Numbered from the stretch's first letter, positions 20,630 through 51,165 are shown. The stretch: DNA of 64,000 nt from Planctomycetota bacterium (GCA_965223505.1 CBDCWP010000034.1:1-64000); one strand, 5' to 3'. The notes: a model not told the origin generated them from the sequence alone. Made by a program: numbers and translations.

Positions 20630-20639
20630 GAATAGAACC

Positions 20640-34591: not shown

Positions 34592-34693
34592 GGAATCGAC
34601 GATCGTAGCGCTGATTGCCGGCCGCCCGGCAGACGGTCCCAGCGCTTGGGCCCCGCCTCGCGGGGCGCCTGGCTAGCGGTACGCTGGCCGGTC

Positions 34694-35404
34694 ATGCGTC
34701 TTCGCGCCGACATCGTCATTGCGGGCGTCATCGTGGTCCTCTGCGCCTACGCCGTCGCCGCCCAGCTGGGCTTCGATCCGCTGGGCAGCGAGGAGACGAT
34801 CGAGCCGATCGCCATCGGGGAGGTCCTCGACCCGGACCTCGTCCTGAACTACGTGGACAAGAACCCCAAGCCGGTCGCCCTGGGCAATTGGTACGGCGAG
34901 AAGGCGACGGTGTTCTACACCTGGAGCGTTCCGTGTCCCTGCGTCGAGCATCTGGAACCTCGCATGCGCTCGGTGTTCTCGCGCTTCGGCAAGGACCAGG
35001 GCGTCGCGTGGATCGCGGTGGACGGCGAGCCCCTCGATCGGCCCGAGACGTACGTCATCGCGCCCGGTACCAAGGACGAGGAAGAGCGCCTCGGCATCAT
35101 GACGAAGATGGGCCGCATCTACGCCTTCTACAAGATGCTGCTCGATCCGGAGCAGCAGCTCTGCCGGCGGCTCGGGTTCAGCGACGCGTGCCAGGTTGCG
35201 GTGCTGGACGGGGAGGGACGGCTGCGCTACCGCGGCTCGATCGACCACGACTACTACAAGGGGAAGGGCGAGTATCTCGAAGCGGCGCTTCGGTCCGTCC
35301 TCGCCGGTCGGCCCGTCGAACCCGCCGAGCGGCCGTGGGTGTACGGCTGCGGGTTCTCCGATCCGGAATCGTGCGAGTTCTACGAAGGCCTGACGCCGAA
35401 GTAG
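34694..35404 (+). CDS. Membrane-anchored redoxin/thioredoxin-like protein
   Basis: N-terminal TM; WSVPCPCV, VLDGEGRLRYRGSID, YGC. Confidence 0.75.
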   Translation: MRLRADIVIAGVIVVLCAYAVAAQLGFDPLGSEETIEPIAIGEVLDPDLVLNYVDKNPKPVALGNWYGEKATVFYTWSVPCPCVEHLEPRMRSVFSRFGKDQGVAWIAVDGEPLDRPETYVIAPGTKDEEERLGIMTKMGRIYAFYKMLLDPEQQLCRRLGFSDACQVAVLDGEGRLRYRGSIDHDYYKGKGEYLEAALRSVLAGRPVEPAERPWVYGCGFSDPESCEFYEGLTPK

Positions 35405-35475: not shown

Positions 35476-35796
35476 CTAGATGTGAATCAGCGTGCCCGTC
35501 CGCATCATGCTGATGCGCTTGATGCGCGAGATCGGGATGTACTGCTTCACCGGCTGACGGTCCTTCTTCGTGGCGGCCAGAACCGTGTTGAAGATCACGT
35601 AGTCGTTGCCGAATCCGGCGATCTTGCCGGGGTACCAACCCTCGCGCAGCTCGTGCCCCGAGCTCGGCAGCGCTTCGAACGACTCCGGGTTGACGAACGT
35701 GACCTGCTTGCCGACCAGCGACTCCAGCACGCCGCGGTAGTCGCGGTCTTCCGTCGTGGGCTGGGGGGCTTCCTTCGTTGCCTGCTGCTCCGACAT
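35476..35796 (-). CDS. Small hypothetical protein with possible Sm/LSm-like fold
   Basis: GGAG RBS; LESLVGKQVTFV..GKIAGFGNDYVIF..YIPISRIKRI. Confidence 0.7.
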   Translation of the reverse strand: MSEQQATKEAPQPTTEDRDYRGVLESLVGKQVTFVNPESFEALPSSGHELREGWYPGKIAGFGNDYVIFNTVLAATKKDRQPVKQYIPISRIKRISMMRTGTLIHI

Positions 35797-35905
35797 GGCA
35801 CTCCTCCGTGGTGGGGGGCCGTCATTCGGGCCCCGGGCGCCCACCCTACGTGTGCGTGGGGTCCCGGGGCAATGGGCAGCGTCTCGACGAGCGGAGCGCC
35901 GCCGG

Positions 35906-36202
35906 CTAGCGCGCGCGCTTGAACCAGAACTCGACGGAGGCGCGGGTGTTCACGGTGAACCCGCTCGCCGGCTCGTAGACCGAAACCAGCTCCCAGCCGT
36001 GGGCGCCGAGCTTCTGGATGGGCGCCAGCAGGGTGATGTCGGACTTCTCGTACGTCTCCAGTCGGCGGTCCAGCGGGATGAGTACGTGCTTGTACTCCCA
36101 GCCGTCGGGCGCCGCGCCGTCGGCCTGCGCCGGGGCGCCGAATGCGAGGAACGCGGCGCCGAGCAAGAGGGCGCACGGGATCATCCAGGTCAGGGCCTTC
36201 AT
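35906..36202 (-). CDS. DUF4177-like small exported protein
   Basis: Signal peptide; WEYKHV..LGAHGWELVSV..FWFKR; GGAGG RBS. Confidence 0.8.
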   Translation of the reverse strand: MKALTWMIPCALLLGAAFLAFGAPAQADGAAPDGWEYKHVLIPLDRRLETYEKSDITLLAPIQKLGAHGWELVSVYEPASGFTVNTRASVEFWFKRAR

Positions 36203-36419
36203 CGGGGGGTCCTCCTGTGGCGGTTGGGCGTCGATTGTCCGCGAGGGTTGGACGACGCGCAGCGGCAAACTCGTCGAATTGCTCGGGTCATCCCGGCGTT
36301 GCCCGCGTCGGCTCGCGTTGCTACCTTCCCCCCGCTCGCGAGCGAGGCGCCGCGCCGTTTCCGGCCCCTGTTTCTCGGGCTTTCCCGGCCCCTGCGCCGC
36401 TTCGAGGAGCACTCTTCGC

Positions 36420-37841
36420 GTGGTCAAGATCCCGGTAGGCATCCCGATCTTCGTCGCCGCGGCCGGCATCGATCCGCGTTTCTCGAAGCTGGTGCACCGA
36501 TACATCTTCTGGGCGGCGCTGTGGCTGCTGCTGGCCAGCGGTATCGGGCTGCTTCTCGCGATCCGTCACGTGGACCCCGAGATCCTGGGTGGGCTCGAGG
36601 AGTTGACGTACGGGCGCCTTCGCCCGGCGCACACGATGACCATGCTCTTCGGCTGGGCGTCGATGGCGCTGGTGGGTCTGTCGTTCTTCGTCGTCGCCAA
36701 GTCGTCCTGGCTGCCGATGCACGAGCCGTGGTCCGACTGGGAGCACGCGCTCGCCAACGTGTCGCTGTGGCTTTGGAACGCCGGCATCGCGGCCGGCCTC
36801 GTCACGTTGTGCATGGGGTTGGTGCGCGGCGGCATGGAGTATCGCGAGTACGAGTGGTACTGCATGGCGCCGATTGCGCTCGCCGTGATCATCGTCGGGA
36901 TCCTGTTCTTCCGCTTCATCGCGCGCCGGCACGTGGGCGGCGTCTACATCTCGTGCTGGTTCATCCTCGCGGCGTGTTTCTGGATCGGCGTGGTCGTGGT
37001 GATGGGCTACCTGCCGATCTACAAGACCGGCATTCCGTCGCGGATCATCGACGGGTACTACATTCACAACGCCGTCGGCATGTGGTTCACGCCGCTGGCG
37101 GTCGGCATCACGTACTACGCGCTGCCGAAGCTGCTCAACAAGCCCATCTACTCGTATGCGCTGGGTGTGCTCGGCTTCTTCACGCATCTCGTCTTCTACA
37201 CGGTCATCGGAACGCACCACTACATCCACACGCCGATCGCGCTGTGGCTGCAGTCGGTCTCGGTGATCTTCAGCGTGGCGATGATCGTTCCCGTGTTCGC
37301 GAGCGTCGGCAACTTCATCCTGACGATGTGGGGCGAGCGCCTCGCCATCTCGCACAGCTACTCGCTGCCCTTCTTCGTGATCGGCGTCGTCGGGTACGGA
37401 CTCGCGTCGCTGCAGGGCAGCGCGGAGTCGCTGCGCTCGGTCCAGGAGACGCTGCACTTCACGCACTACACGGTCGGACACGCGCACCTCGCGATGTACG
37501 TGTTCGTCTCGTTCTTGATCTGGGGCGCGATCTACGGCCTGGTGCCCCGCGTGACCGGCAAGGAACCGCCAGTCGCGCTCGTCGGCGTCCACTTCTGGCT
37601 GGCGCTCGGCGGGATCGCGATCTACGTGATCGCGCTGTGTTGGGGCGGCCACGTGCAGGGCGAGAGCTGGAAGAGCGGCGAGCCCTTCATGGAGTCGGTG
37701 CGCGCGGTCATGCCGTTCATGTCCTGGCGCGCGGTGGGCGGCGCGCTGATGAGCGCGTCCCACGTCGTGTTCATCATCGCGCTGTGGAAGATGAGGCCCG
37801 GCGACCTCGCGCGCGCCTTCGAAGCGATGCAGGAGGCGTAG
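36420..37841 (+). CDS. ccoN: Divergent cbb3-type (C-family) heme-copper oxidase subunit I
   Basis: YGRLRPAHT, EYREYEW, YIHNAVG, PIYSY, FYTVIGTHH, HFTHYTVGHAH; start codon uncertain. Confidence 0.88.
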   Translation: MVKIPVGIPIFVAAAGIDPRFSKLVHRYIFWAALWLLLASGIGLLLAIRHVDPEILGGLEELTYGRLRPAHTMTMLFGWASMALVGLSFFVVAKSSWLPMHEPWSDWEHALANVSLWLWNAGIAAGLVTLCMGLVRGGMEYREYEWYCMAPIALAVIIVGILFFRFIARRHVGGVYISCWFILAACFWIGVVVVMGYLPIYKTGIPSRIIDGYYIHNAVGMWFTPLAVGITYYALPKLLNKPIYSYALGVLGFFTHLVFYTVIGTHHYIHTPIALWLQSVSVIFSVAMIVPVFASVGNFILTMWGERLAISHSYSLPFFVIGVVGYGLASLQGSAESLRSVQETLHFTHYTVGHAHLAMYVFVSFLIWGAIYGLVPRVTGKEPPVALVGVHFWLALGGIAIYVIALCWGGHVQGESWKSGEPFMESVRAVMPFMSWRAVGGALMSASHVVFIIALWKMRPGDLARAFEAMQEA

Positions 37842-37844
37842 ATC

Positions 37845-38522
37845 GTGGCTTGGAACATCCACACCAGTCATCGCGCGATCTTCTTGCTCCCCGCGGGCAT
37901 CTACCTGCTGCTCGTGTTCGTCATCGCGATCCTGCCGGCGATGGCGGAGAAGCAGCGCGAGGACCAGTACATCCCGTTGGCGCAATCCGAGGCCGCGGCG
38001 TGGGGCCGCGAGCTCTACCGCAAGGACTTCAACTGCGTCGTGTGTCACACCCAGCAGATCCGCGGTGACGAGCGGCTGCGCTTCGAGGAACTCGACCCGC
38101 GCAGTCCGACCGGCAAGTCCTGGCGCGTTCCGGTGCTGCAGGCCGACCGGCGTTTCGGTCAGGACAAGCCGACGCGGGGCGAGGAGTACGCGCATCAGGA
38201 AGCGCCCATGCTGGGCACGCAGCGCACGGGACCGGATCTGATGGGTGTGGGCAAGCGGCTGCCGGACTTCCAGTGGCACCACTGGCATCTGTACAGCCCG
38301 CGCTCGGTGTCGCCCGACTCGGTGATGCCCGCGTATCGCTATCTCTACAGCACCGAGAAGCCGCCGGCGGAAAACGGAATCGAGCCGCAGCCGGTGTCGA
38401 CGTTCCACGGGCTGGGCGTCGACGGGGACGTTCTGTGGGCGACGCCGCGCGCCGTGGCGCTCGTCGAGTACCTGCTGTCGCTCAAGCGCGATCCGATCCA
38501 GAAGAAGAGCGAGGTCAAGTGA
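37845..38522 (+). CDS. ccoO: cbb3-type oxidase subunit II, monoheme cytochrome c
   Basis: TM anchor, GRELY..CVVCHTQQIR, GTQRTGPDL..VG.R, HLYSPRSVSPDSVMPAY. Confidence 0.9.
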   Translation: MAWNIHTSHRAIFLLPAGIYLLLVFVIAILPAMAEKQREDQYIPLAQSEAAAWGRELYRKDFNCVVCHTQQIRGDERLRFEELDPRSPTGKSWRVPVLQADRRFGQDKPTRGEEYAHQEAPMLGTQRTGPDLMGVGKRLPDFQWHHWHLYSPRSVSPDSVMPAYRYLYSTEKPPAENGIEPQPVSTFHGLGVDGDVLWATPRAVALVEYLLSLKRDPIQKKSEVK

Positions 38523-38749
38523 TGTGGCTCGGCGCCCACGAGCATCCGGCCTGGGAAGACTTCGGCGCCGTCGAGTGGGCGGCGGTCGGCGCTGCGTCCA
38601 TCTTCGTGATCTGGACGATCTGGCTGGCGGTCAAGTACACGATCTCGCCGCGCGAGGACGCGCCGGACCACTACAAGCGCTTGATCTTCGACCGGCCCGA
38701 CGCCGGGGCCCCCGTCTTAGAGGACAATGACGAGTCAGGTGGCGCATGA
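38522..38749 (+). CDS. Small single-TM protein in the cco operon (CcoQ/CcoS-like position)
   Basis: Overlaps the ccoO stop and the next start; one hydrophobic helix. Confidence 0.65.
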   Translation: MWLGAHEHPAWEDFGAVEWAAVGAASIFVIWTIWLAVKYTISPREDAPDHYKRLIFDRPDAGAPVLEDNDESGGA

Positions 38750-41430
38750 CGACGAGAGACGACTCCGAACCGATCAAGATCTACCTCGACGACCAGACCG
38801 AGCCGTTCAAGGTCGCGCAGCCGCCGTTGCGCTTCAACTTCAACACGATCCAGCTACCCGACGGTCCGCACACGCTGCGCGTCGAGGCGAGCAACGGCCT
38901 CGCGCCGCCGACCATCAAGGAGATCCCGTTCCGCGTTCGCAACGGCGTCGCGCTCACCGTCTCCGGCCTCGAGCAGGAGCAGACGATCAGCGGACAGGTC
39001 GAGCTCATCATCAATGCGTATGCGGGGAGTACGGAAGTCGACTTCGAGCCGCGCCGCGCGGAGACGCCGCAGCCCGTTCCGACGTGGGCCTGGGTGCTGC
39101 TGCTCGCCGTCATCGCGTGGACGATGTTCTATCTGATCAATCCCGAGCGCGCCGCGCCCGATGCGACGGCGGCGGTGGATCGTGCGTCGCCCGCGGTGGG
39201 GGAGCGCATCTACGTCGACACGTGCGCACGCTGCCACGGCGAGGACGGACGCGGGCGCGGTGACGCGAGAAACTCGGGTATGCGCGTCCCGCGGCTTCGC
39301 GACGACAAGAAGTACGCGCTGGCCGACAGCCCGTTCGACCTGCTCACGAAGGTCGTGTTGGGCGAGCGTCCCTCGGAGGACGACGACGCGATTCCGGATC
39401 CCGACGTGATCGACATTCCGACCGTGATCATGCCCAACTGGGGGCCGATCCTCACGAACGAGGAGATCGTCGCCGTCGTCAATTACACGCGCACCTCGTG
39501 GGGCCACGACGCCTCGACGATCACGCTCGAGCACCGGCGCCCGCCGCGTGAGATCGAGAAGCTCGAAGAGCGGATGAAGGACGCGATCGAGAACAAGAAC
39601 GCGAACGGCGAGCTCGGCGACTGCTGCTGGCCCAAGTCGCGGCGCGGGCGGCCGCCGATCCTGTTCCGCACCGACGGCGTCCTCGCGCGCGGCCAGCAGG
39701 CGGTCGAAGACGCCTGGAACCGGTACTTCGAGGACCTGGGCACCGGCAAGATCACCCAGTTCGTCCTCACGGAGGAGCGCTACGACTACGACCGCAACAC
39801 GGTGAACCAGGACAAGAGCAAGGTGATCGGCATGGGCCGCATCTTCATCGAGGCGGTCGCGCACAACGGCCAGCCCTACTCGCAGAACGGCCGCTTCATC
39901 CGCGTGTACGAGAACCGGGTGGACAAGGCAGGCAAGGTGAACTGGTCGTTGATCTTCGATTTCGCGGACATCGACATGCGCATCGGCTGCGACGTCGAGA
40001 TCGACCCGGACTGTCCGCCGGACGAGCTGCAGCCGACGGCAGAGTCCCGGATCGCCGCGCTCTTGAAGCAGGCCGACGGCCAGGCGCGCGGCTACGAGGA
40101 CATCCAGGAGATGTTCCGCGCCCTGGGGCGCAAGCCGGTCGCGTCCACGCACGAGCTGTTCTGGGAGCTCGACTACGCGGACTTCATCGAGCTCGAGTTC
40201 CCCTACAGCTGGGACGAGCCCGACCACATCATCAAGCTGGTCGAGCCTTACGACGCCGGCGCGTCGAACCTCATTCGGGCGCTGCTGCCCAACGAGATGG
40301 TCATCGTGAAGCTCGAGAGCGGCGCGACGACGCACAAGCCTGTCGAGCGGATGCCGAAGCGCGGTCCGTATCTCGACGACATCTCGACGGCGAACGTGGC
40401 CGCGTGGGTGCAGGCGGGGTGTCCGGAGTTCGCGGACAAGCCGTCGGCGATCCCGATGCCGGAGGGCAAGGACGAGCCGAACGGTGCCGAGCCGAATGGC
40501 AAGGAGCCGCCGCCGGGACCGTCCACCGGCGACCTCGGCTGGGAAGGCGTCAAGCAGCTGTTGGCGGACCTGAAGACGAAGGCGCCGGCGTCGCCGCACG
40601 GCGACTTCTGGAAGGACCTGAGCTACGACGAGTTCATCGAGTTCGCGTTTCCCCAGGAGTGGGGCGATGAGGGGTTGATCAAGCTGGTGATTCCGTGGGA
40701 CGGGGCGAACTCGAACCTCATCAAGGGGTTGCGCGACGGGAAGAACATCACGCTCACGATGCCGGACGGCACGACGAAGACGACGTCGGTGAAGCGGATG
40801 CCGAAAAACAAGCCGCCGATGTCGCCTGAGGACATCCAGCGTTTGATCGACTGGATCGACAAGGGATGTCCGGAGAAGGCGGGCGCGCCGTCGAAGTGGC
40901 CGAAGCCGGGTGCGACGGACACGGAGAAGCCGCCGAAGGAGCCGCCGCCCGACACGCCCGAGCCGCCGTCGGATGCGCCGCCGCCGCCCCCGCCGGGTCC
41001 TGATCCGGAGCCGCCGGTCGCGGACGCAGGCGAGAAGCCGGTGATCGACATCGGGTTCGCGCGGATCCAGGAGATCTTCAAGGCGTTGAAGCGCAAGGCG
41101 CCGGCGGCTGCGCACGGCAACTTCTGGAAGGACCTGAGCTACCAGGAGTTCGTGGCGTTCGAGTTCCCGATGGAGTGGGGCGAGGACGACATGATCAAGC
41201 TGTTGAAGCCGTACGATGCCGAGGGTTCGAATCTGATCCGGGCGTTGCGGGACGGCAAGGGCGTGGTGCTGACGGCGCCGGACGGGAGTACGCGGACGGT
41301 GAACATCGAGCGGATGCCGAAGGGTCGGCCGCCGATGGATCCTGCGCATCTGGCCGAGGTGATCAAGTGGGTGAACGCGGGGTGTCCGGAGCATTCGGGC
41401 AAGCCGTCGGCGTTGCCCAGGCCGAAGTGA
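38746..41430 (+). CDS. Multidomain cytochrome c: Ig-like domain, TM, class I cytochrome c, NTF2-like domain and three tandem ~113-aa repeats
   Basis: CARCHG..MPNWG heme domain; repeats H-x-x-FW..SNLI..RMPK..W-x-x-x-GCPE at 40090-40428, 40537-40875 and 41053-41391. Confidence 0.85.
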   Translation: MTTRDDSEPIKIYLDDQTEPFKVAQPPLRFNFNTIQLPDGPHTLRVEASNGLAPPTIKEIPFRVRNGVALTVSGLEQEQTISGQVELIINAYAGSTEVDFEPRRAETPQPVPTWAWVLLLAVIAWTMFYLINPERAAPDATAAVDRASPAVGERIYVDTCARCHGEDGRGRGDARNSGMRVPRLRDDKKYALADSPFDLLTKVVLGERPSEDDDAIPDPDVIDIPTVIMPNWGPILTNEEIVAVVNYTRTSWGHDASTITLEHRRPPREIEKLEERMKDAIENKNANGELGDCCWPKSRRGRPPILFRTDGVLARGQQAVEDAWNRYFEDLGTGKITQFVLTEERYDYDRNTVNQDKSKVIGMGRIFIEAVAHNGQPYSQNGRFIRVYENRVDKAGKVNWSLIFDFADIDMRIGCDVEIDPDCPPDELQPTAESRIAALLKQADGQARGYEDIQEMFRALGRKPVASTHELFWELDYADFIELEFPYSWDEPDHIIKLVEPYDAGASNLIRALLPNEMVIVKLESGATTHKPVERMPKRGPYLDDISTANVAAWVQAGCPEFADKPSAIPMPEGKDEPNGAEPNGKEPPPGPSTGDLGWEGVKQLLADLKTKAPASPHGDFWKDLSYDEFIEFAFPQEWGDEGLIKLVIPWDGANSNLIKGLRDGKNITLTMPDGTTKTTSVKRMPKNKPPMSPEDIQRLIDWIDKGCPEKAGAPSKWPKPGATDTEKPPKEPPPDTPEPPSDAPPPPPPGPDPEPPVADAGEKPVIDIGFARIQEIFKALKRKAPAAAHGNFWKDLSYQEFVAFEFPMEWGEDDMIKLLKPYDAEGSNLIRALRDGKGVVLTAPDGSTRTVNIERMPKGRPPMDPAHLAEVIKWVNAGCPEHSGKPSALPRPK

Positions 41431-41450
41431 CCGGCGGCGTGGTGGGCGCT

Positions 41451-41542
41451 GTATGGGCGGCCCTTGTGACCGCCCGCGACCGGCGTGCTGCATGCGGCGA
41501 GCGCAGTTGCCGTAGGGGCGGGGCTTGACCCCGCCCGCGACC
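41451..41542 (+). repeat. Pair of GTAG-type REP-like palindromes
   Basis: GTATGGGCGGCCCTTGTGACCGCCCGCGACC and GTAGGGGCGGGGCTTGACCCCGCCCGCGACC; related to the 32238-32355 units. Confidence 0.75.
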
Positions 41543-41616: not shown

Positions 41617-41692
41617 GCCCGCTTAGCTCAGTCGGTAGAGCATCGGATTCTTAATCCGCAGGTCCTAGGTTCGAGCCCTAGAGCGGGTACCA
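41617..41692 (+). tRNA. tRNA-Lys(CTT)
   Basis: GCCCGCT/AGCGGGT acceptor, AGCTCAGTCGGTAGAGC D-arm, TTCTTAA loop, CTAGG-TTCGAGC-CCTAG T-arm, encoded CCA. Confidence 0.95.
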
Positions 41693-41832
41693 GTCGACCC
41701 ACTGGATGCTTGACGGCGCATCGCCGCCCGTGTGTCCCATTCCTCGACCTCGCACGGTGAGGTCAGTGCGCCATTTGCCGTCCGAAGAACGAACAGAAGA
41801 GCGCTCCGCATCCTCCGTGCAAGTCAGCGCAG

Positions 41833-42645
41833 GTGCTGCATGCGATAGACTTCGCCGGCGTGGGCTCCGTGATCACCATTAATCAGCAGGACGCGATCTT
41901 CACCAGTCGCGGATTGGCTGGGGTGTTGGGAGAGGGGATCGCCGATGCTCTGGAGAACGTCAACCCGGGGTTGCTCGACCAGCTGAAGCATCAGTTGAGG
42001 AACGCGGACAGTGACATGCTGTCGTTCGCCCACCTAAAACCCAATGAGTTCAATGACGTAGTTCTGTCGGTTTTGGCACACGCCGACCGTCTCGTCGTTG
42101 ACCACGTAGCTCCCGACGCACTGAACCCGCTGTTCTTCGATCGCTACTGTGAGCTTGTGCTCGACTTTGAGAATCGGGTGCTTCGAGACCCTCGCCTGCG
42201 TGAGGTCAAGGAGCTTGCCCTGCTACGCCGGGGGCGTGGCAGTAGACGCTCCGGTTCACACTCACCAAGCGACGAAGAAGTAGCGGTTGCATTCACACGC
42301 TTTGTCGCCGGATTTGGAGAGCGGAAGCGCCTACGAATGCTGACGGCGATGGCTTGTGCGCGGGTGCGACCAACTGCGTTCAAAATTGCGGTTGAGCGAT
42401 TGTCCCGCGAAGATCCCTCCAACTGCGTACGGAATTTCGCAAGAGGCGTTCTCAAGGGCCGTTGGTGGTTCCGACTCAGGCACTTGAGCGATGTGACGAC
42501 CGCCTGGCGTCTCGTTGGAGCCGTCGTGCTCATGGCATTCGGTGTCTGGGGCGCGTTCATCTTGCCGCCGGGATCGGTTCTGTGGTGGATGTGCGCGGCA
42601 ATGGTCGTAGCGCCGCCGGTTTGGCGGCTGTGTGGCAAGGTGTGA
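41833..42645 (+). CDS. Hypothetical protein with two C-terminal TM helices
   Basis: 270-codon ORF with visibly more AT-rich codons than flanking core genes. Confidence 0.5.
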   Translation: MLHAIDFAGVGSVITINQQDAIFTSRGLAGVLGEGIADALENVNPGLLDQLKHQLRNADSDMLSFAHLKPNEFNDVVLSVLAHADRLVVDHVAPDALNPLFFDRYCELVLDFENRVLRDPRLREVKELALLRRGRGSRRSGSHSPSDEEVAVAFTRFVAGFGERKRLRMLTAMACARVRPTAFKIAVERLSREDPSNCVRNFARGVLKGRWWFRLRHLSDVTTAWRLVGAVVLMAFGVWGAFILPPGSVLWWMCAAMVVAPPVWRLCGKV

Positions 42646-43089
42646 TTCTGGATTCGAGTTTGCCCAGCGCCGTTGCCGTGCCCGCCGACATACGGTACCG
42701 GGTTCTTTCTTTCGGCCACGCCATGCGTTCGCGGCGATCCGGCCAACGAAACCGGCGGCGGAGTATTTTCACTCGGAAGATGTCCGACGTTGGAACAAGT
42801 AGTACTCGGGGGTTCCCGGATCCCCGGTTCCCCTGAGAGCGAGGACGTCCTCAGTGAGCACAAACAACGGGAAACGGCGACCCGCAAGATGACCATCTTT
42901 GTACTCCAGGTAGCCCTCCGTGCCGCTATCCAAGCGCCACTTGACGACCAGCCAGTCGAGACGGCCCCCCGTCAATCGCAGTCGGCCTAGGCCGAGCGTG
43001 TGGCGCGGTCGGCGATTCGGTTCATGCGGGCCAAGTGAGCGCCTTGCCGATCGCAGGGAGAGCTAGGCGGCGCCATACAATGCCCGCCT

Positions 43090-43386
43090 GTGAAGCACTA
43101 CGTAGGGAACAAGGTCGTGGACCGTCGGTCTCGCCAGCAGCAGAGGGATGTCCTCCTCACGATTGCCATCGTTCTCGGCGTCATACTCCCGCTGCTCGTG
43201 ATATTCGCCGTGCGCAGCGACGAGAAGTGGAAGTGGGTCGCGGCGGCGGTGGAGGTCGGCGCGTGGTTCTTCGTGTGTAGGTGTGGCGTTACGCCGCAGG
43301 GGAGAGCGCGCAAGTGGAAGCGGCGCCATAGACGACGGGCCATGAATGCCGCTGATAAGAGCGCGAAGGCTAGAGAGCCCGGGTAG
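43090..43386 (+). CDS. Small hypothetical membrane protein
   Basis: Two hydrophobic helices; TACAAT just upstream of the GTG. Confidence 0.45.
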   Translation: MKHYVGNKVVDRRSRQQQRDVLLTIAIVLGVILPLLVIFAVRSDEKWKWVAAAVEVGAWFFVCRCGVTPQGRARKWKRRHRRRAMNAADKSAKAREPG

Positions 43387-43429
43387 AGTTGCCTTTGCCC
43401 GATACCGGTAGTCATTCACTCCGCAGCAG

Positions 43430-43690
43430 ATGCAAGATGCGCCAGTGGACCCCAAGCTCGACTTCCCTTGCAGAGTCGTCTGCATCAGCGACCGGGCCTA
43501 CCTTGCCAGCGACGAGGAGGGGAACTTGCGCGCGCCTGGCCCGAACGACCGGCTGAGCGTGTGCTGACGGTCGGGAAGGTCTACGAAGTAGTCGGCGAGC
43601 ACCTCGGGATGTACGCGATCATCGATGACACTGGCGAGAGTTTCTTCCCCAAGAGCCGCTTCCGCCACGTCTCCGCGCTCCCCCGAGAGC
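43430..43690 (+). pseudogene. Frameshifted small SH3-like protein
   Basis: MQDAP..CRVVCISDRAY in one frame joins VLTVGKVYEVV..YAIIDDTGESFFPKSRF in another near 43550. Confidence 0.5.
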
Positions 43691-44076
43691 GGCAAGTAGC
43701 GCCACCCTACCGCCCGAGATGTACTGCTGAACGGAAGACGGAATCTTGCCCCGGTGGTCCGCGTCCCACGTGCGCCGGAGCAGGAACATGTGCACAGTAA
43801 TGGCGCTCCTCCGTCTACTGGTCTCGTCCCTACTGGTTGTGCTCGGCTCCGTCTGTGGGGCTGGTGGGCGCTTCAATCGATTGCCGGCATTGCTGGCGGG
43901 CTCCTCTACGGTCTCCCCGCGGGCTCGCATTTCGGTGGTTACCCCTACGAGCGGGGCCATCCTGGGCTTCTACCGGCTAACTGAGCGGTGGGAAACCGTC
44001 GTGGAGTAGCCTTCGCCCGAGAGCAGCGAGTAGCGCGACCTCGTACCTGCGCTCGTGTGTCCGTAAGATGCGGCGC

Positions 44077-44373
44077 ATGTCTGAGCCCTGGGAGTCCCTC
44101 CGCGTTGGCGACCGCATCCGCATTGTGCAGATGCCCAGCGGCGTCGACGCGCCGGGCTACGTCTTCTCGCGCTGCACGCGGTGGCTCTACGAGAAGCTCA
44201 TCGAGCGAGGCCGTTCACTGCGCATCGCCGAGATCGATGAGTACGGCCTTCCGTGGATTCACTGCAGGTTCCGGCAGGCTGACCAGACGTGGGAACACCA
44301 CTTTCTCGCCGTGAACGACGACAGTTGGGTGCAAGTACGGCACCGCCGCGACCGGAAGACCAGCGCCCGCTGA
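44077..44373 (+). CDS. Small hypothetical protein
   Basis: LRVGDRIRIV..LRIAEIDEYGLPWI; protein-like composition. Confidence 0.6.
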   Translation: MSEPWESLRVGDRIRIVQMPSGVDAPGYVFSRCTRWLYEKLIERGRSLRIAEIDEYGLPWIHCRFRQADQTWEHHFLAVNDDSWVQVRHRRDRKTSAR

Positions 44374-44494
44374 CGCCACGGCTCCGCGAGATTCGCGCAT
44401 CGGGCATGGTGTTCCGCAGCGTCTCGGTCAAGCCTCGGGCTCGACGTGGCGGCGGATGCTATCCTCACCCTACTGGTCTTGCAGGGGTGTCAAC

Positions 44495-45505
44495 ATGCCG
44501 TCGCGCGCCGTCTGGATCGTCGTTCTTCTCGTCCTCGTAGCGCCCCCGGCCCGCGCGGATGAAGCGTTCAAGGTGGGGTTGACAGTTACGAAGTCACTCG
44601 TCGTCGAGCGCACGTGGGTCTTCTGCGACGAAGAGACACTCGGCGCGTTCGCCATCGGCAAGAGCGGTGAACGAACGGTCTGGGTGAAGTTCAAGATCCC
44701 GTTTCGTTGGGCGATCGCAAGCCACGTCAAGCCGGGCACCCAGCTGGACTTCCGCGGCAAGGTGAAGGGCCCGCGAATCGGCGAGATCGACGCCGTTCAG
44801 GTCGACGACGCCGAGCTGATTGCCGTCGGCGGCCGGCCGCTTGCAAAGCTCGGCGCGGGCGTCGACTACGCGTCGTTTCGGGACGGGGTCTTCGACACCC
44901 GTCTCGCGCAAAGCAAGCGACTCGAGAACTGGAATGCGCTCAAAGGCAAGCGATTTACCGACGTCGGTGTCGTGCGGCGTGTCAAGGATGACGGGAAGTC
45001 GCTGGAGCTGGATTTCGTGTCCGGCGCCGGTACGCACGGTCGAATTACCATCGGTCGTCGACTCAGCGACGATGAGGTGACGAACCAGTACCTGCCACAG
45101 GCGCACGTCCTGGTGGCGGGTATCATCGAGGACTACGTGTTCCGCACCAAGACCGTCGTGGTCAAGGGGACTGACACAGCGGCGATTCCCAACAAGACGG
45201 GGGTCTGGCCGGAGGGGCAGGGAGCGACTCGGGGTCGAGCGCACGTCATGGGCGTCGGCGACATCTGCGAGGCGACCGATGAGATCGCCCTCTTCAGGGA
45301 CATGGAGTTCACCACCAAGATGGAGGCGCGCGAGAAGCTCGTCGGCACCCTCGCGAAGGGCGAGCGGTTCGAGATTCGGCGCTCCGACGGCTTCTTCGAG
45401 GTGGACTTCTTCATCGTGAGCCACAAGAACCCTCAGCTGCGGGGCTGGGCAAGCAAGGCGCTCGTCGAGAAGGCCGCCAAGATCGTTCGTGCAGGCGGCG
45501 CGTGA
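44495..45505 (+). CDS. Secreted hypothetical protein (possible OB-fold domains and C-terminal SH3-like domain)
   Basis: Signal peptide ending ARA; VGTLAKGERFEI..LRGWAS SH3-like segment. Confidence 0.65.
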   Translation: MPSRAVWIVVLLVLVAPPARADEAFKVGLTVTKSLVVERTWVFCDEETLGAFAIGKSGERTVWVKFKIPFRWAIASHVKPGTQLDFRGKVKGPRIGEIDAVQVDDAELIAVGGRPLAKLGAGVDYASFRDGVFDTRLAQSKRLENWNALKGKRFTDVGVVRRVKDDGKSLELDFVSGAGTHGRITIGRRLSDDEVTNQYLPQAHVLVAGIIEDYVFRTKTVVVKGTDTAAIPNKTGVWPEGQGATRGRAHVMGVGDICEATDEIALFRDMEFTTKMEAREKLVGTLAKGERFEIRRSDGFFEVDFFIVSHKNPQLRGWASKALVEKAAKIVRAGGA

Positions 45506-45571
45506 GCAAATCCGCACGACCGAACCGCCTCTTCCATGCACCCATACGACTCGGCGCGACCGGATCTCGTC

Positions 45572-46294
45572 CTAGACGAGCTCGTCGGCGAGGGCGTCGA
45601 GCAGACTACCGCCGTCGCCCCTCCACGCGGATCCGTGCATGCAGGCAAGGACCTGCGGTCGCGTGTCGATCAGCTTGTCGAAGAGCGCGCGCGCGTTCTT
45701 CGTGTGCGAGTAGTAGTCCATGTTTGCCTGCATGGCGAGCGACGGACCGAGGATGTCCCGTTCGGTCACGGGAGCGTGCTCCTGGCCGCCCTGCGTGAAC
45801 AGGTCACCGCAGAGCAGCGTCCGCGTTTTCGCCTCGAACAAATACCCGCATTCCCAGCCGTGAGGCAGGTGAGGCGTGTCGAGCCAGCGCAGGCGGTGGC
45901 GGCCGACATCGAGCTCCTCGCCATCGGCCATTGCACGCGCCGGCCGATCCGCCACGTCGTCGATCGAGACCATCGCGGCGATCCGGCTGCAGAGCGGCAC
46001 CGCGTTGGGTGCGGCAGCGAGGAACTCGTTCATCGCCCCGCACTCGTCGGCTTCGAAGTGCGAAAGGCCCACATACCGCAAGCGTTCGAGCGGCAGCACC
46101 CTGCTCACGGCCTCGGAGACGAGCGGGAACAACTTGCGCGGTCCAGTATGAAAGAGCACCGGCTCCTCGTCGTCGATCAGGTACTGGTTGAACGTGAATC
46201 CACCAGGGATCGCCTCCGGGGGGATTGGCGTGCTGATGCGATAGATGCCGTTTGTGATCTCGTCGACCCGCGTACTGCTTGTGTTCGTCGTCAT
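45572..46294 (-). CDS. Stand-alone metallo-beta-lactamase-fold protein (flavodiiron/ODP-like)
   Basis: FNQYLIDDEEP, SHFEADECG, TPHLPHGW, CGDLF, MHG. Confidence 0.88.
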   Translation of the reverse strand: MTTNTSSTRVDEITNGIYRISTPIPPEAIPGGFTFNQYLIDDEEPVLFHTGPRKLFPLVSEAVSRVLPLERLRYVGLSHFEADECGAMNEFLAAAPNAVPLCSRIAAMVSIDDVADRPARAMADGEELDVGRHRLRWLDTPHLPHGWECGYLFEAKTRTLLCGDLFTQGGQEHAPVTERDILGPSLAMQANMDYYSHTKNARALFDKLIDTRPQVLACMHGSAWRGDGGSLLDALADELV

Positions 46295-46404
46295 GTGTAC
46301 ACGGTACCGGGTTTCCTGCCTCAGCTACACCCATGGGGCGTTCGCTGGATCGGGCCTACCCCGGATATCGAGCGCTCGAGAGAAACCCGGTACGGTATTG
46401 CGGA

Positions 46405-48255
46405 CTAGCGCAGGGCGACCACGAGCACGTCCTGCTGTGCCTGCGCGATGTTCGCCTGGTTGAAGAGCACGGCGCCTCGGCCCAGGGCATCCACTTCGAT
46501 CGCGAGCCCCGACACGTTGATGCCCGGGATCGCCGCCGAGAGCGGCTCGTCGGGACCGGACGTCGCGTCCGATGCGAGGCGGCGCATCGCCACGTGACTG
46601 CCCTGGCTCGGGTCGAGCGGGTCGTTGTGCACGGTATAGGCGACGAAGCCGCCCCCGCCGGCATCGATCGTCACACTCGGTGTCAGCTGCGGCCCGGCAG
46701 TCAGGGGCGTCGGCTCCGACGGCAGGTCGGCCGCCGACCATGCAACCGTGTGCAAGAACGACGGCCCGGCACTGAACAGCACGATCAGCAGGTCGCCACG
46801 TGCATTCGCAGCCACCGTCCCGAGGCCACGATCGCCCAGGCCGGCGCCCAGAGGCTCCGCTGGTCCGAAGCCGGTGGCCGGATCCAGGCGCGAACCGAAG
46901 GCGCTATGAGAGCCCTGCACGTCCTGCTCGGTCCAGAGCACGACACCGCTCTGCGCCGCCCCGGTCGCTCGCAACCGAGAGATGGAGAGCGCCTCGCCGA
47001 GCACTCGAGCACCGCTCCACTGCGGTGTCGTCGGCGTTCCGAAGACGGCCAGGACGCTCTCTGTCTGTCCGAGTGCATCGACCTCTTGCCAAGCGACGAC
47101 GGCCTCTCCGTTGGCGTCGACGGTCGACGACGTGACGCTGGGGACGTCACCGGGCCGATTCTCGAGAGGCACCGGGGCAAGGGAGGTGGCGTTCGAGATG
47201 CCGGCCGCCATGACGGTGAAGTCGAACACGCCGACCTCGTCGACCCAGGCGATGACGCCGCTGCCGTTCTCGTTCATCGCGAGCGAGAGTCCGAGCGCCG
47301 GCAGCCCGCTGCTCAGATCGTCGACGAGAAGGGGGCCGGTGGGGCTGCTTCGCACCGCCCGACGCACCAGCGCGTCGCCGCCGATCACCGGCTCTTCGAG
47401 CCACGTGATGACGCTCGCTCCCGTGCTGGTGACTGCGGGGATGGGCCGGCCGGCGCCACGCGTCAGCGCGTCCTCGAGCGGCTGCACGTCCCATGTGAGC
47501 GTCGTGGGATCGAAGAACGCCGCATAGGCGTCCGGCCCGGCCGGCGTGACGACGCGCCACACCGCCGTGGCATGTCCGTTCGCGGCCACCGCAAGCGAGT
47601 TCGGCGCGACGTTCAATGTTGCGGGAGCCGACTGGAGAAGCTCGGGCATCCCGGTCGGCAGTCCTTCCTCGAACCGCTGGGCGACGATGTCTCGACCACC
47701 GGGAACCAGCCGAACGTACAAGGCGACGCCGCTCCCGTCCCGCGCGAGCCGAAATGCAACGGCCCCGGTGATCTCGGGATCCGTCTCGAGCGGCGAAGGT
47801 GGAAGCGCCACCGCCGACCGCGTGTCGAATGCGAAGACGAAGGGGTTTTGACGCTCGTTGGCCTGCAGGTCGCGCACGCCCGCGGCGAGGGTGACTTGCG
47901 TTCTCGCCGCGAAGCGAAGCGGTAGCTGTGGCGTGAACACCACGGTGCGGTCGTTGTCTTCGAACGTGATCGTGCCGTCGATCGGCGCGTTGTCGGTGGC
48001 AGCGGTCAGTGTGCCGGGCTGCACGCTGGTCGTGTCGATCGGTACCGCAAACCTCAGTCGGATCGCCGTGGTCGGGTCGATGCCGACCGCGTCGACGGCG
48101 GGATCCACCGAGACGATGCGCGGGTCTTCGCCGTCGTTGACCACAGACTCGATGTCGGCCCCTCCGCCTCCGCCGCCGCATCCGCAAAGGCACATGAGGA
48201 ACATCGGCAGGCAAGCGAACATGAGGGCGGCGCGCAGGATGCGGGGAAGGATCAT
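46405..48255 (-). CDS. Lipoprotein with Big_5 Ig-like domain and beta-repeat C-terminus
   Basis: LCGC-GGGGGG lipobox; PRIVSVDP..IRLRF..VFTP..GVRDL.N..FAFDT; repeated G.A.VAW.E units. Confidence 0.8.
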   Translation of the reverse strand: MILPRILRAALMFACLPMFLMCLCGCGGGGGGADIESVVNDGEDPRIVSVDPAVDAVGIDPTTAIRLRFAVPIDTTSVQPGTLTAATDNAPIDGTITFEDNDRTVVFTPQLPLRFAARTQVTLAAGVRDLQANERQNPFVFAFDTRSAVALPPSPLETDPEITGAVAFRLARDGSGVALYVRLVPGGRDIVAQRFEEGLPTGMPELLQSAPATLNVAPNSLAVAANGHATAVWRVVTPAGPDAYAAFFDPTTLTWDVQPLEDALTRGAGRPIPAVTSTGASVITWLEEPVIGGDALVRRAVRSSPTGPLLVDDLSSGLPALGLSLAMNENGSGVIAWVDEVGVFDFTVMAAGISNATSLAPVPLENRPGDVPSVTSSTVDANGEAVVAWQEVDALGQTESVLAVFGTPTTPQWSGARVLGEALSISRLRATGAAQSGVVLWTEQDVQGSHSAFGSRLDPATGFGPAEPLGAGLGDRGLGTVAANARGDLLIVLFSAGPSFLHTVAWSAADLPSEPTPLTAGPQLTPSVTIDAGGGGFVAYTVHNDPLDPSQGSHVAMRRLASDATSGPDEPLSAAIPGINVSGLAIEVDALGRGAVLFNQANIAQAQQDVLVVALR

Positions 48256-48389
48256 CTGAGGTCTCCTCTGGGCCCTACGAGTGGGCCCCTAGGAGCGGAA
48301 CTCCCATTCGTCCTTTCAATTCGTCGCCCGCGCTCGGTTTTCGTCCAATGGGGATCCCCGGTGTCGAACGACCTCGTACACGACGGCGC

Positions 48390-49291
48390 TCAGCGGCCTT
48401 CGACGCGAGCGGGCGATCGCTGCGGCCGCGGGGAACGGTGCGCCTTCGCACCCGCCCCGCGAGCGGCCGGCAACGGATCGAGCAGCGACTCGTCGACGAA
48501 CGCGATGCGAATCAACGCCCCGAACAGCCACGCCCCGGCCGCGCGTGACAGGACGCGCTTGGTTAGGAAGGCGAAGAACCTGTACTGCCAGCCGGCGACG
48601 ACGGAAGGCCGGCGTCCCAGATGCCGCAGGCCCGTTCGAGCGACACGATCCGGCCGCAGCTGGAACATGCCCACGCGACGGAAGTCGATCGCCTTTCGCA
48701 AGCGGCCACCATGGGCGTCTTCGTCAACCCGGGCGACAAGCACAGGACGTCGACGCCGTGGGGCCGCAGCTCGTAGTAGAGGGCCTCCGCCAGATGGACC
48801 TGGTGGGCCTTGCCGGCTGCGTAGTTGGCCAGGTGCGGCACGCCCTGGTAGCCGATGCTCCCCGAGACGAACAGGACTCCACCGCGCCCGCGCTCGGCGA
48901 AACGTCGCCCGAACCGCTGAGCCAGCTCCGTCGGCGCCGTGACGTTCAACTCGATGACGTCGCGAAGCTCTGCAGGCGTGTGTCGTACGAATGCGCCGCG
49001 CTGCTCGGCGGCCGCGTTGTTGATCAAGAGGCCGACATCGAGGCTCCGGGTCTCGAGGTCGAGGGCTTCTCGGGCGTCCGACCGCTTCAGGTCGAGCGCG
49101 ACAACGCGCGTCTGCACGCCGAATTCGCGGCGAAGCTCGCTCGCAACGCCGTGCAGCGTCGTCTCCGAGCGCGACACCAGCACGACGTTCATCTTCGCCT
49201 GCGCCAGCATCCGCGCGAAGCTCTTGCCGATTCCGGACGAGGCGCCGGTCACGACGGCCCAGCTTCCGTACTTCTCGGTGAGTGATTGCAT
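48390..49291 (-). CDS. Short-chain dehydrogenase/reductase with an apparent single-base-deletion frameshift near 48705
   Basis: VVTGASSGIG, LINNA, YAAGK, SPGLTKT; C-terminus PDRVARTGLRHLGRRPSVVAG continues in another frame. Confidence 0.85.
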
Positions 49292-49626
49292 CTCGAGTCT
49301 CCTGATTGCGTGCATGCCTCGAAGCGGCGTGAGCTGTGGCCGAAGGCAGGCGGGTGTCGGTCTCGACCTGATGGGCGTGAGGAGCGTCCTCACGATGTGA
49401 GGCGAGCGGTCGCTTCGTCTCGCGAACTCACCGTCGATGACCGGTGTTGCGACGGGCGTGGAGGGGTCGAGTGGACGCGGGACCCGGCGGCGTCCTCCGC
49501 GCTTCGCGGATCGGCTATCCTGCCGTCGTGGATGCCGAGAGACTGCGGTGCATCCTGGACCTCGTGTGAACACCAACGAACCCGAGCTGGAAGCGCTACT
49601 CGACGAGCCAGAGGAAGGAGCCCGAC

Positions 49627-51015
49627 ATGACGACGATCGCCCGCCTGGCAGAGCAGGAGCTAGGAGGATCGCTGCGCGGCGCGGTCTTGACACCCGACGG
49701 CCGTGGCTATGAGGCCGCCCGCTTGGTATGGAACGCAATGATCGACCGGCGCCCGGCTGCGATCGCCACCTGCGTGGGCACGGCGGACGTCATGGCCTGT
49801 ATGCGGCTCGTCACCAAGCATGACCTGCCCTTCACGATCCGTGGCGGCGGGCACAACATCGCCGGATTGGCCGTGCAAGACGACGCCCTGATGATCGACC
49901 TGTCGAACATGCGCGGCGCCTGGGTCGATCGTTCCCAACAGACCGTCAATGCGCAGCCCGGCGCCACCCTCGGTGACATCGATCGGGAGACCCAGCTGTA
50001 CGGACTGGCCGCCGTACTGGGGTTCGTCTCCAACACGGGTGCGACGGGGCTGACGCTCGGCGGCGGCCTGGGGTACCTGACACGCCGCTATGGTTGGACC
50101 TGCGACAACGTGCGCTCGTTCGACATGGTGACGGCCGAGGGCGACCTCGTTCGCGCCAGCGCGGAGGAGAACGCGGATCTGTTCTGGGCGCTCCGTGGCG
50201 GGGGCGGAAACTTCGGCGTGGTGACCAACACGGAGCACAGGCTCTACCCGGTCGGCCCCGAGATCACGGGCGGGATGATCGCATGGCGCTTGGAAGACGT
50301 TTCCGCCGTCCTCGACTGTTACCGGGACGTCGTCGCGACGGCCCCGCCCGAGCTGACCTGCGCGTGCATGATCCGACGTGCGCCGCCGGCCCCGTGGTTG
50401 CCGACCGAGATGCACGGCGAGCTGATCGCCGGGCTGCTGGTCTGTCACACCGGGACCGAGGAGCAGGCAGCGCGGGACCTGGAGCGGATCAAGCAGCTCG
50501 GAGAGCCTGTCGGAGACGTGGTCCGGCGCTGTTCGTACGAGCAGCAACAGAGCATATTGGACAGTGGCCAGCCGAACGGGCGCCGCTACTACTGGAAGTC
50601 CGAGTATCTGTCGGGGCTCGAGCCCGAAGCGCTCGAGGTGTACCGCAGTCACGGCGAGCGGGTGACCTCGCCTCATAGTGCGGCGATCTTGTTCCCCGTC
50701 GACGGCGCGCTCAACGACCTGCCCGACGACCACTCCCCCATGGGGAATCGCGACGCCAAGCTGGTCCTCAACCTGACGGCTTCCTGGGAGGACCCGGCCG
50801 AGGACGCGAGCCACATCGACTGGGCTCGCAACGCGTGGGAGGACATGCGTCCGTTCTCGACGGGCGGAACCTACATCAACTTCCTCAATGAAGAGGACGG
50901 CGAGGACCGCATTCGGGCCGCGTACGGAAGCAACTACGACCGTTTGGCCGAGGTCAAGAGCCGTTGGGATCCCGGCAACCTGTTCAAGGCCAACAAGAAC
51001 ATCGCCCCGGCGTGA
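49627..51015 (+). CDS. FAD-binding oxidoreductase, berberine-bridge-enzyme family
   Basis: RGGGHN, TLGGGLG, LFWALRGGGGNFGVVT, YINF, KSRWDPGNLF. Confidence 0.93.
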   Translation: MTTIARLAEQELGGSLRGAVLTPDGRGYEAARLVWNAMIDRRPAAIATCVGTADVMACMRLVTKHDLPFTIRGGGHNIAGLAVQDDALMIDLSNMRGAWVDRSQQTVNAQPGATLGDIDRETQLYGLAAVLGFVSNTGATGLTLGGGLGYLTRRYGWTCDNVRSFDMVTAEGDLVRASAEENADLFWALRGGGGNFGVVTNTEHRLYPVGPEITGGMIAWRLEDVSAVLDCYRDVVATAPPELTCACMIRRAPPAPWLPTEMHGELIAGLLVCHTGTEEQAARDLERIKQLGEPVGDVVRRCSYEQQQSILDSGQPNGRRYYWKSEYLSGLEPEALEVYRSHGERVTSPHSAAILFPVDGALNDLPDDHSPMGNRDAKLVLNLTASWEDPAEDASHIDWARNAWEDMRPFSTGGTYINFLNEEDGEDRIRAAYGSNYDRLAEVKSRWDPGNLFKANKNIAPA

Positions 51016-51165
51016 GAACCCGGCAGTATGAAGCGGCTGCCGTGCCCGGCGCTCCTGACGCAAGCTCGACGCTCGGAATCAGCGGGTCGGTCGCCATCGG
51101 CGTCGCCTCGGGCTCGGCGACGTTCTCCGACGTCGGTGTGGACGCTTCGAAAACGTGCTTCGACG

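Follow-up and report, generated by a model that had tools for sequence, protein, structure and literature searches.

We analyzed a predicted respiratory oxidase operon in a 64,000-nt stretch of DNA from a Planctomycetota bacterium (GCA_965223505.1 CBDCWP010000034.1:1-64000), referred to below as the window. The operon occupies positions 36420-41430 of the plus strand and consists of four genes, encoding a CcoN-like subunit I, a CcoO-like subunit II, a small protein with one predicted transmembrane (TM) segment, and a large protein with a single heme c motif (Table 1). This locus proved to be a genuine and conserved operon, which codes for a divergent respiratory oxidase of the cbb3 type in uncultured Planctomycetota. 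Because the G+C content of the window is ∼67%, it contains many long spurious open reading frames (ORFs), and the four operon genes were marked out by a third-position G+C of 0.89-0.92 together with their family matches. The genes are tightly coupled, as the initial annotation of this DNA had described them, with intergenic gaps of 3, -1, and -4 nt. A 607-aa ORF beginning at 36018 was rejected as a candidate for subunit I; it is an artefact, as homologues begin at the point equivalent to 36420 by alignment consensus. The 75-aa gene lies in a different frame from an Arg-rich ORF that overlaps it.

Table 1. Coordinates of the operon genes, the domains of the large protein, and associated features in the window
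Feature	Coordinates	Strand	Remarks
Subunit I, divergent C-family (CcoN-like) heme-copper oxidase, 473 aa	36420..37841	+	GTG start; PF00115 (COX1) E 7.6e-71
Subunit II, CcoO-like membrane-anchored monoheme cytochrome c, 225 aa	37845..38522	+	PF02433 (FixO) E 7e-20
Small single-TM protein, 75 aa, at ccoQ position	38522..38749	+	One hydrophobic segment
Large protein, 894 aa	38746..41430	+	One CxxCH, one TM segment, three repeats
N-terminal domain of large protein, residues 1-112, possibly Ig-like	38746..39081	+	Densest run of invariant columns in homologue alignment
TM anchor and class I heme-c domain, residues 113-251, CcoP-like core	39082..39498	+	PF13442 E 6.5e-12
Probable NTF2-like (DUF4440-like) domain, residues ∼262-425	39529..40020	+	Conserved Cys (CCWP, C415, C423)
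Repeat 1 of cysteine-less PSCyt1-like module	40090..40440	+	His, Met, GCPE Cys present
Repeat 2 of module	40537..40887	+	His, Met, GCPE Cys present
Repeat 3 of module	41053..41403	+	Copy folded by AlphaFold2, pLDDT (predicted local distance difference test) 93.9
Membrane-anchored thioredoxin-fold protein, 252 aa, WSxPCPC motif	34646..35404	+	Candidate assembly factor; membership in the enzyme only putative
Promoter-like motif TTGCCC, 17 nt, TACCTT, inside conserved TGCTACCTTCC	36299..36327	+	Consensus resemblance and conservation

The conservation of the gene set was assessed through the large protein. Counting its own, this protein has 58 homologue clusters, of which all the named ones come from Planctomycetota. 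A single scan of 185,579 species genomes, based on two peptide patterns of its N-terminal domain, recovered 26 loci, every one in a metagenome-assembled genome (MAG) of Planctomycetota; two of the loci are contigs of one MAG. When these loci were searched by tblastn with the four window proteins, the gene for subunit I was found in 23/26 and those for subunit II and the small protein in 24/26 each. In all cases they precede the large gene on its strand, arranged as N-O-small-large. The cases in which one of them was missing (L009, L016, and L023) correspond to contig or locus ends. The coupling is conserved as well: the gap between the first two genes is -4 to 9 nt in 21/21 loci, that between subunit II and the small gene is ≤20 nt in 21/23, and that between the small and the large gene is ≤20 nt in 20/22, with large negative values reflecting over-extended ORF starts. 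Wherever a locus holds sufficient upstream DNA, the large protein is thus co-conserved with ccoN and ccoO, their order unchanged.

Subunit I found its best matches in the Protein Data Bank (PDB) among the cbb3 CcoN chains 9g6b_A and 3mk7_A (E ∼1e-51), as against E ∼1e-6 for A-family chains, and it matched no nitric oxide reductase (NOR) chain at E ≤0.001. Its score against the NCBIfam ccoN equivalog TIGR00780 was 201 bits, the cut-off being 583. Six His residues, the ligands for heme b, heme b3, and CuB, align with those of the Pseudomonas stutzeri CcoN chain, and the helix-VII Tyr is present in a Y-x5-HH arrangement (FYTVIGTHH). Apart from one row that ends at a contig end, all 147 C-family rows of our alignment have the six His and this Tyr. 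The catalytic residues reported in the initial annotation were therefore recovered, as were its ccoN-like, ccoO-like, and 75-aa TM genes, the Pfam matches and hydrophobic segment of which are listed in Table 1.

These residues bear on the likely substrate. According to a passage of a published account on the superfamily of heme-copper oxidases, its NOR families lack the active-site Tyr (PMC11214002), and the catalytic residues, this Tyr included, therefore argue for O2 reduction. We regard it as highly improbable that the enzyme is instead a NOR or another non-O2 reductase of a C-family branch. Passages of the same source would lend such an assignment some plausibility, as they place cNOR, qNOR, and related families on branches joined to the C family and describe in vitro NO reduction by cbb3 oxidases (PMC11214002), and the conserved Glu near heme b3 has been lost (see below). 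The Tyr is, however, invariant here, and subunits I and II matched no NorB or NorC chain or family in NCBIfam or the PDB; on these two grounds the NOR assignment was set aside.

The initial annotation had also noted QGS in subunit I where CcoN normally has EGP. The two motifs do align in the comparison with P. stutzeri CcoN, placing Q332 at the position of the canonical Glu, but the contrast needs restating: only one of our four canonical references has EGP and the other three have EGS, so the real difference is that of Glu to Gln. Gln occupies this column in 142 of the 147 C-family rows, with Glu confined to the four canonical references and P0134. Since QGS also occurs in the divergent proteobacterial homologues from Ralstonia, Indioceanicola, and Sinorhizobium, Gln marks a broad non-canonical group and not this operon. 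The Glu of this column is taken here to be the conserved residue of the review cited next, in line with what the P. stutzeri structure paper reportedly describes. In a passage of that review, the low heme b3 potential of cbb3 oxidases is ascribed to a hydrogen bond between the His ligand of this heme and a highly conserved Glu (PMC8398457). With Gln at this position, the redox tuning of heme b3 is probably altered.

For the phylogenetic placement of subunit I, a word-indexed search yielded 1251 relatives, of which the best 120 were listed. A FastTree phylogeny of 148 rows comprised 118 of these best 120 matches, the window, 21 of the loci, three divergent proteobacterial homologues, four canonical ccoN genes taken from annotated alphaproteobacterial ccoNOQP operons, and a ctaD outgroup. 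Rows linked to the large gene formed a clade of 102 with a support of 99. Its sister clade of 38 rows includes a Methylomirabilota-named cluster, and the union of the two had a support of 93, while the four canonical ccoN genes grouped in a clade of their own (100). A tree of 36 rows computed with an IQ-TREE mixture model agreed, with supports of 96, 95, 99, and 100, the large-gene clade receiving 96 and its union with the sister clade 99. The deepest branching was poorly supported in the subunit I trees, and the Ralstonia and Indioceanicola rows did not group with the planctomycete clade. By both methods, subunit I lies outside the canonical ccoNOQP clade as represented by the four references.

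A family profile of the CcoO-like protein matched five CcoO chains in the PDB (E 4e-27 to 1e-22); these were the only oxidase subunits recovered, and NorC was not matched. C64, C67, H68, and M161 are invariant across 23 sequences. Longer forms of this protein, of 277-294 aa, occur at L014, L015 (6916-7746), and L017 (4212-5072), where an insertion of ∼60 residues with hydrophobic, TM-like stretches precedes the last conserved helix. The 75-aa protein had no family match in Pfam or NCBIfam. Seven of its residues (W19, V37, P43, E45, H50, K52, and R53) are invariant, and the motif PGExEPDH[IV]KR follows directly after the TM segment.

The large protein has one hydrophobic TM segment (residues 113-131) and no N-terminal signal peptide, and its heme-c domain (residues 149-251) carries M229 and the only CxxCH of the entire sequence, C160-x-x-C163-H164. 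A match to the CcoP family TIGR00782 reached only E 1.2e-4, with 21.5 bits relative to a cut-off of 180, and the protein, with its one CxxCH, does not qualify as a diheme CcoP. The best PDB chain for the large-protein family profile was nonetheless a CcoP, 9g83_v (E 4e-13), and 3mk7_C was matched at 1.7e-10. With shorter relatives included in the profile, the TM and heme region proved colinear with CcoP (residues 106-252 against 23-194 of 6xkw_p; 9g83_v E 2.9e-17), and it also aligned with the monoheme third genes of Ralstonia and Indioceanicola. The large gene itself sits at the ccoP position of canonical operons (loci L030-L033). The proposal in the initial annotation that CcoP had been replaced by a giant modular cytochrome needs correcting in the light of these comparisons, as what stands in its place is not unrelated to it, and ccoP can be called missing only in the sense that no separate gene was found among the 40 window ORFs scanned, as the large protein holds a CcoP-like TM and heme core. 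Gene position and homology together suggest that it is the CcoP-equivalent third subunit.

Set beside canonical CcoNOQP oxidases (3mk7/5djq, 9g6b, 8smr, and 6xkw; loci L030-L033), the operon has the same order of catalytic subunit, monoheme CcoO, small TM protein, and cytochrome, and it shares the six His, the helix-VII Tyr, the fold and heme ligands of CcoO, and the CcoP-like TM and heme-c region. It differs in that the window subunit I is only ∼28-32% identical, falls in a separate clade, and has Gln for Glu, and in that no ccoGHIS genes adjoin it. Whereas the canonical third subunit is diheme, here one heme is combined with the N-terminal domain, the probable NTF2-like domain, and one to four cysteine-less modules. 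Operons on a Ralstonia megaplasmid (CP076116.1 592008-596283) and in Indioceanicola (NZ_CP030127.1) are closer, with QGS and a subunit I that is 38% identical. Their third gene product is a monoheme cytochrome c with a TM anchor and shows homology to the large protein's core, but it has only 203-212 aa (203 in Ralstonia) and lacks both the N-terminal domain and the C-terminal arm; the gene is followed by an SCO gene or a Cu-type P-ATPase gene and by further cytochromes. The Indioceanicola plasmid operon (L028 7285-12689) is unannotated, and its order by Pfam is ccoN-like, FixO, monoheme cytochrome c, diheme cytochrome c, SoxA/TsdA-like cytochrome, and heavy-metal P-type ATPase.

A further group comprises short-form third subunits of 273-310 aa (P0341-P0351). 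They have the N-terminal domain, the pre-TM motif, the TM segment, and the monoheme domain, but end right after the latter; their identity to the large protein over its residues 1-275 is 37-40%. One of them, P0344, is 35% identical to the Ralstonia third gene product (E 1.5e-23). Our guess is that the short forms are paired with the sister clade of subunit I. The most economical history would be one in which a CcoP-like subunit was cut to one heme, gained the cytochrome-independent N-terminal domain, and then acquired the C-terminal arm in Planctomycetota.

A different way to read the same protein is as a co-transcribed, membrane-tethered donor to a two-subunit CcoNO core, comparable to cytochrome cy, and not as a stable subunit. 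Its single TM segment, single heme-c domain, and extended Pro-rich linkers (22 Pro within 55 residues) give it an architecture resembling that of tethered carriers, and only CcoN and CcoO are reportedly universal in cbb3 clusters. The diheme subunit, moreover, is presented in a passage of PMC8398457 as possibly redundant for electron transfer and catalysis. We nevertheless think it quite improbable that the large protein is such a donor. Its TM and heme region is colinear with CcoP and not with a generic carrier, its gene lies at the ccoP position with a 4-nt overlap with the preceding gene, and the strongest conservation falls on the cytoplasmic N-terminal domain and the pre-TM segment, which suggests a fixed docking site.

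As the N-terminal domain precedes the sole TM segment and no signal peptide is present, residues 1-112 are most likely cytoplasmic and all that follows the TM segment is most likely periplasmic. The extracytoplasmic arm of the initial annotation would accordingly be confined to the part after the TM segment. This N-terminal domain is the most conserved part of the large protein and is retained in the ∼280-aa short forms. It had no sequence match in the PDB, and the leads toward an Ig-like fold were weak (Big_7 at E 0.094; Atlas 0.82-0.84, with unnamed "cytochrome C" clusters nearer at 0.89). For the NTF2-like domain, PF14534 was matched in 7/58 homologue clusters and the profile matched 3hx8_A, a putative ketosteroid isomerase, at E 0.005, while residues ∼262-425 of the window protein had no Pfam match. 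The domain list first proposed for the large protein thus stands as regards one CxxCH, one TM segment, and three repeats, with its Ig-like and NTF2-like entries to be taken as tentative.

The three repeats are ∼116-117 aa long and 48-51% identical to one another. Among the orthologues, one has four copies, 16 (the window included) have three, four have two, and four have one, a contig end having cut one of the last group; some orthologues have low-complexity Pro/Gly tails in place of repeats. Across 64 copies, His21 and Met88 were each present in 62, the Cys of a GCPE motif in 55, and Asn60, Pro89, Trp106, and Gly110 in all. CxxCH occurred in 0/64 of these copies and in 0/107 copies of the wider family described below. 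The module had no match in Pfam, PF07635 included, or in NCBIfam, and its sequence profile retrieved nothing from the PDB. A Foldseek search with the confidently folded copy gave no PDB match at E ≤0.001 (best 0.43), the faint matches to class I cytochromes having TM scores of 0.27-0.32.

The kinship of the module emerged from profile comparison. Aligned with 91 segments of PSCyt1 (PF07635, "Planctomycete cytochrome C"), it gave an hhalign probability of 98.5% (E 1.8e-15) over positions 48-113 and 52 columns. The likeness covers the second half of the repeat, with the motifs PG..S.L, RMP, and W[IV]..G; unlike PSCyt1, the module has no CxxCH, contains an inserted hairpin, ends in GCPE, and often occurs in stand-alone proteins without a signal peptide. 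A forced global alignment placed His21 on the His of the PSCyt1 CxxCH, with low confidence. That the repeats are duplicates of the protein's own heme domain was considered and rejected (hhalign probability 1.1%); the PSCyt1 profile matches that heme domain at 95%. In multi-domain PSCyt1 cytochromes, the match to the module profile is limited to its final third.

Searched against 1.84 billion representatives (50% clustering), the module profile matched 814 proteins at E ≤0.001 and 113 at ≤1e-10. In a sample of 107 near-full copies drawn from the best 150 of the 814 representatives, the His was conserved in 104, the Met in 98, and the Cys in 80, and none of the 107 had a Cys within the 7 positions before the His. 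Stand-alone proteins of <190 aa made up 52/108 representatives, and in 37 of these 52 the domain starts within the first 15 residues. The 56 longer representatives included 10 with Ferritin-like PF12902, two with LodA, and one each with a tyrosinase, a Mo-pterin domain with Rieske, and a ricin-type lectin; about eight belonged to the large-protein family, and most others had no further recognized domain. In the fusions with Ferritin-like PF12902, LodA, tyrosinase, and Mo-pterin/Rieske domains, partners that are metalloenzymes and oxidases, the module may be N- or C-terminal.

Outside Planctomycetota (P0190-P0323), the module family is broad and unnamed; it includes stand-alone proteins of ∼110 aa, with the nearest Atlas clusters mostly from Actinomycetota and Chloroflexota, as well as the fusions just listed. 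Examples lie at L035 5995-8742 and L036 4992-5333, one of them on a Bradyrhizobium plasmid beside halogenase and radical SAM genes. The only annotations under which the domain appears in cultured rhizobia are "ferritin-like domain-containing protein," of which it forms a part, and "hypothetical protein"; a stand-alone homologue of the latter kind, 113 aa long, lies on plasmid B of Sinorhizobium americanum.

The near-invariance of His and Met in the module favors a ligand role, and the variable copy number, together with the short forms that lack the arm, indicates that the arm is accessory. We tentatively put forward a broader scheme, which we hold as possible but not probable. The module would be a widespread, unnamed cytochrome-c-fold domain without covalent heme, in which His and Met (and Cys) would ligate heme b or copper. 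Strung together, such modules would make up a tethered arm in the periplasm that collects electrons or metal, and elsewhere they would work with ferritin-like, LodA-like, tyrosinase, and molybdoenzyme partners. The Gln-type oxidases would then form a functionally distinct subfamily in which heme b3 is re-tuned.

The repeats and the NTF2-like domain might instead be cofactor-free structural or binding modules, for instance spacers or periplasmic docking sites. Copy numbers of 1-4, the Pro/Gly tails that take the place of repeats in some orthologues, and the ∼280-aa short forms, which lack the arm and so mark it as dispensable for the core enzyme, all fit this explanation. We find it rather doubtful, however, because His and Met are near-invariant while the copies share only ∼30-50% identity, which is hard to explain without a ligand role.

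The modules could also handle copper or another metal, serving as a built-in acquisition or insertion arm for CuB and not as electron carriers. His, Met, and Cys are typical Cu(I) ligands, all three are conserved in the modules, and one module homologue is fused to a tyrosinase domain. The gene neighborhood is relevant here. The FixG, FixH, FixS, SCO, and Cu-ATPase families were absent from the 40 window ORFs scanned and from 46 flanking ORFs of 11 loci, in keeping with the lack of nearby ccoGHIS genes remarked on in the initial annotation. That no SCO, ccoI, or ccoG gene was found nearby, whereas the proteobacterial relatives have an SCO or a Cu-type P-ATPase gene adjoining the operon, would be in line with metal delivery by the arm. 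Most fusion partners are not copper enzymes, however (Ferritin-like 10, LodA 2, and Mo-pterin with Rieske 1), the module descends from a heme-binding fold, and no metal-binding family was matched, so a metal-handling arm appears unlikely to us.

Taken together, these observations make it probable that the product of the locus is a cytochrome c:O2 oxidoreductase of the C family (cbb3-type) specific to a lineage of Planctomycetota, in which the large protein acts as the CcoP-equivalent and bears a periplasmic arm of uncertain cofactor. The initial annotation had proposed a distinct heme-copper oxidase module; the separate clade and the co-conserved operon agree with this, neither of the two outcomes named there as counter-evidence having occurred, but the third subunit is related to CcoP and QGS is widespread. 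With the canonical cbb3 electron route as the pattern (described in passages of PMC5829832 and PMC10556555), the large protein's heme c would donate electrons to the CcoO heme, from which they would move on to heme b and then heme b3-CuB. In such a complex, the TM helix of the large protein would anchor it, its single heme c would hand electrons to CcoO, and the CcoO-like monoheme subunit would feed them to the catalytic core. The N-terminal domain would lie on the cytoplasmic face, where the PGExEPDH[IV]KR segment of the 75-aa protein may adjoin it, perhaps near the proton entrance, the last being pure inference. On the other side of the membrane, Pro-rich linkers would tether the probable NTF2-like domain and the three cytochrome-c-derived modules as an arm that binds a cofactor, either non-covalent heme or a metal, and collects electrons or metal for the oxidase; alternatively, the arm may be a docking device.

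Several points weigh against the preferred assignment. Its support is confined to sequence, and every relative comes from an uncultured MAG. The subunit status of the large protein is putative, its basis being gene position and homology. Subunit I scores far under the ccoN equivalog cut-off (201 versus 583 bits) and has no conserved Glu, and the equation of the Glu of the review with the EGP position is presumed. The canonical set consisted of only four alphaproteobacterial sequences, so the placement outside the canonical clade was a narrow test. Genes for ccoGHIS, SCO, and Cu-ATPase were not found nearby in the ORFs scanned. As regards the modules, the placement of the His on CxxCH comes from a forced, low-confidence global alignment, and the 37/52 stand-alone proteins have no room for a signal peptide, so the module is not intrinsically a periplasmic electron carrier.

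We also examined the surroundings of the operon. A thioredoxin-fold gene lies directly 5′ of subunit I on the same strand in 14/26 loci (15 counting the window). Its product matched Pfam AhpC-TSA and Redoxin only at E 0.002-0.004, its best PDB match was 2ywi_A (E 3.4e-5), and C97, P98, C99, C235, and C243 are at least 90% conserved across 15 sequences. Farther upstream of it are nth and a polX-like gene, and a tRNA-Lys(CTT) gene follows the large gene in the window (41617-41692) and in 10/12 loci tested. The operon thus has a conserved housekeeping setting, with nth upstream and tRNA-Lys downstream, and nothing was found that bears on the role in O2/NO scavenging or sensing suggested initially.

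Sequence motifs in the intergenic regions were examined as well. TTGC(C/T) followed by TGCTACCTTCC with promoter-like spacing was present 5′ of subunit I in 9/20 upstream regions examined, with TGCTACC and TC invariant in these nine, while a sigma-70 consensus scan found no site. No FNR/FixK box (TTGAT-N4-ATCAA, ≤2 mismatches) turned up in 20 regions reaching up to 220 nt upstream of the subunit I gene. Terminator-like sites were not commoner than in shuffled sequences, and Rfam recognized only the tRNA. In the window only, two small genes (minus strand, 35476-35844 and 35906-36202) lie between the thioredoxin-like gene and subunit I, where other loci have 160-500 nt; one of the two encodes a DUF4177 protein with a signal-peptide-like start. 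The stretch from the large gene to the tRNA contains two copies, 79% alike, of a G+C-rich element of 34 nt that forms a hairpin (41448-41481 and 41509-41542), and the hairpins 3′ of the large gene are no more stable than those of shuffles (z -1.03).

Downstream of the tRNA, locus L001 has PepSY_TM and S9 peptidase genes within ∼2.4 kb, the window counterparts of which lie at 59923-63746. Given this displacement, ∼18 kb (41700-59900) looks inserted at the tRNA in the window. The G+C content falls to 0.62 at 42-44 kb within this apparent insert, and no clear att repeat was found for it. At L004, a phage-type integrase gene immediately follows the same tRNA-Lys. Elsewhere in the window, the minus strand carries a 2-oxoacid dehydrogenase gene set (E1 alpha, E1 beta, E2, and E3; 7157-13495) and a lipid-modification cluster (16362-20669) with a cyclopropane-fatty-acid synthase, DUF1365, an amine-oxidase-like flavoprotein, and a fatty acid desaturase. 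Coding-like third-position G+C is also seen in long ORFs at 57235-59892 (plus strand, 885 aa) and 51166-53419 (minus strand, 264 and 492 aa), for which no Pfam match was obtained at the thresholds used.

A literature search yielded no description of the operon, its large subunit, or a cysteine-less PSCyt1-like domain. The presence of cbb3 oxidases is read as a sign of microaerobic respiration, and what is assumed about their properties derives from a few proteobacterial enzymes. The operon described here belongs to a sizeable non-canonical branch without the Glu thought to set the heme b3 potential. Annotation pipelines label such genes just "cbb3-type subunit I" or "c-type cytochrome," and the difference is thereby hidden. 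This branch appears to use a monoheme third subunit, which in Planctomycetota has grown into a large multidomain protein. Its repeat module, a confidently folded domain with ligand-like conserved residues, is linked to O2-related metalloenzymes.

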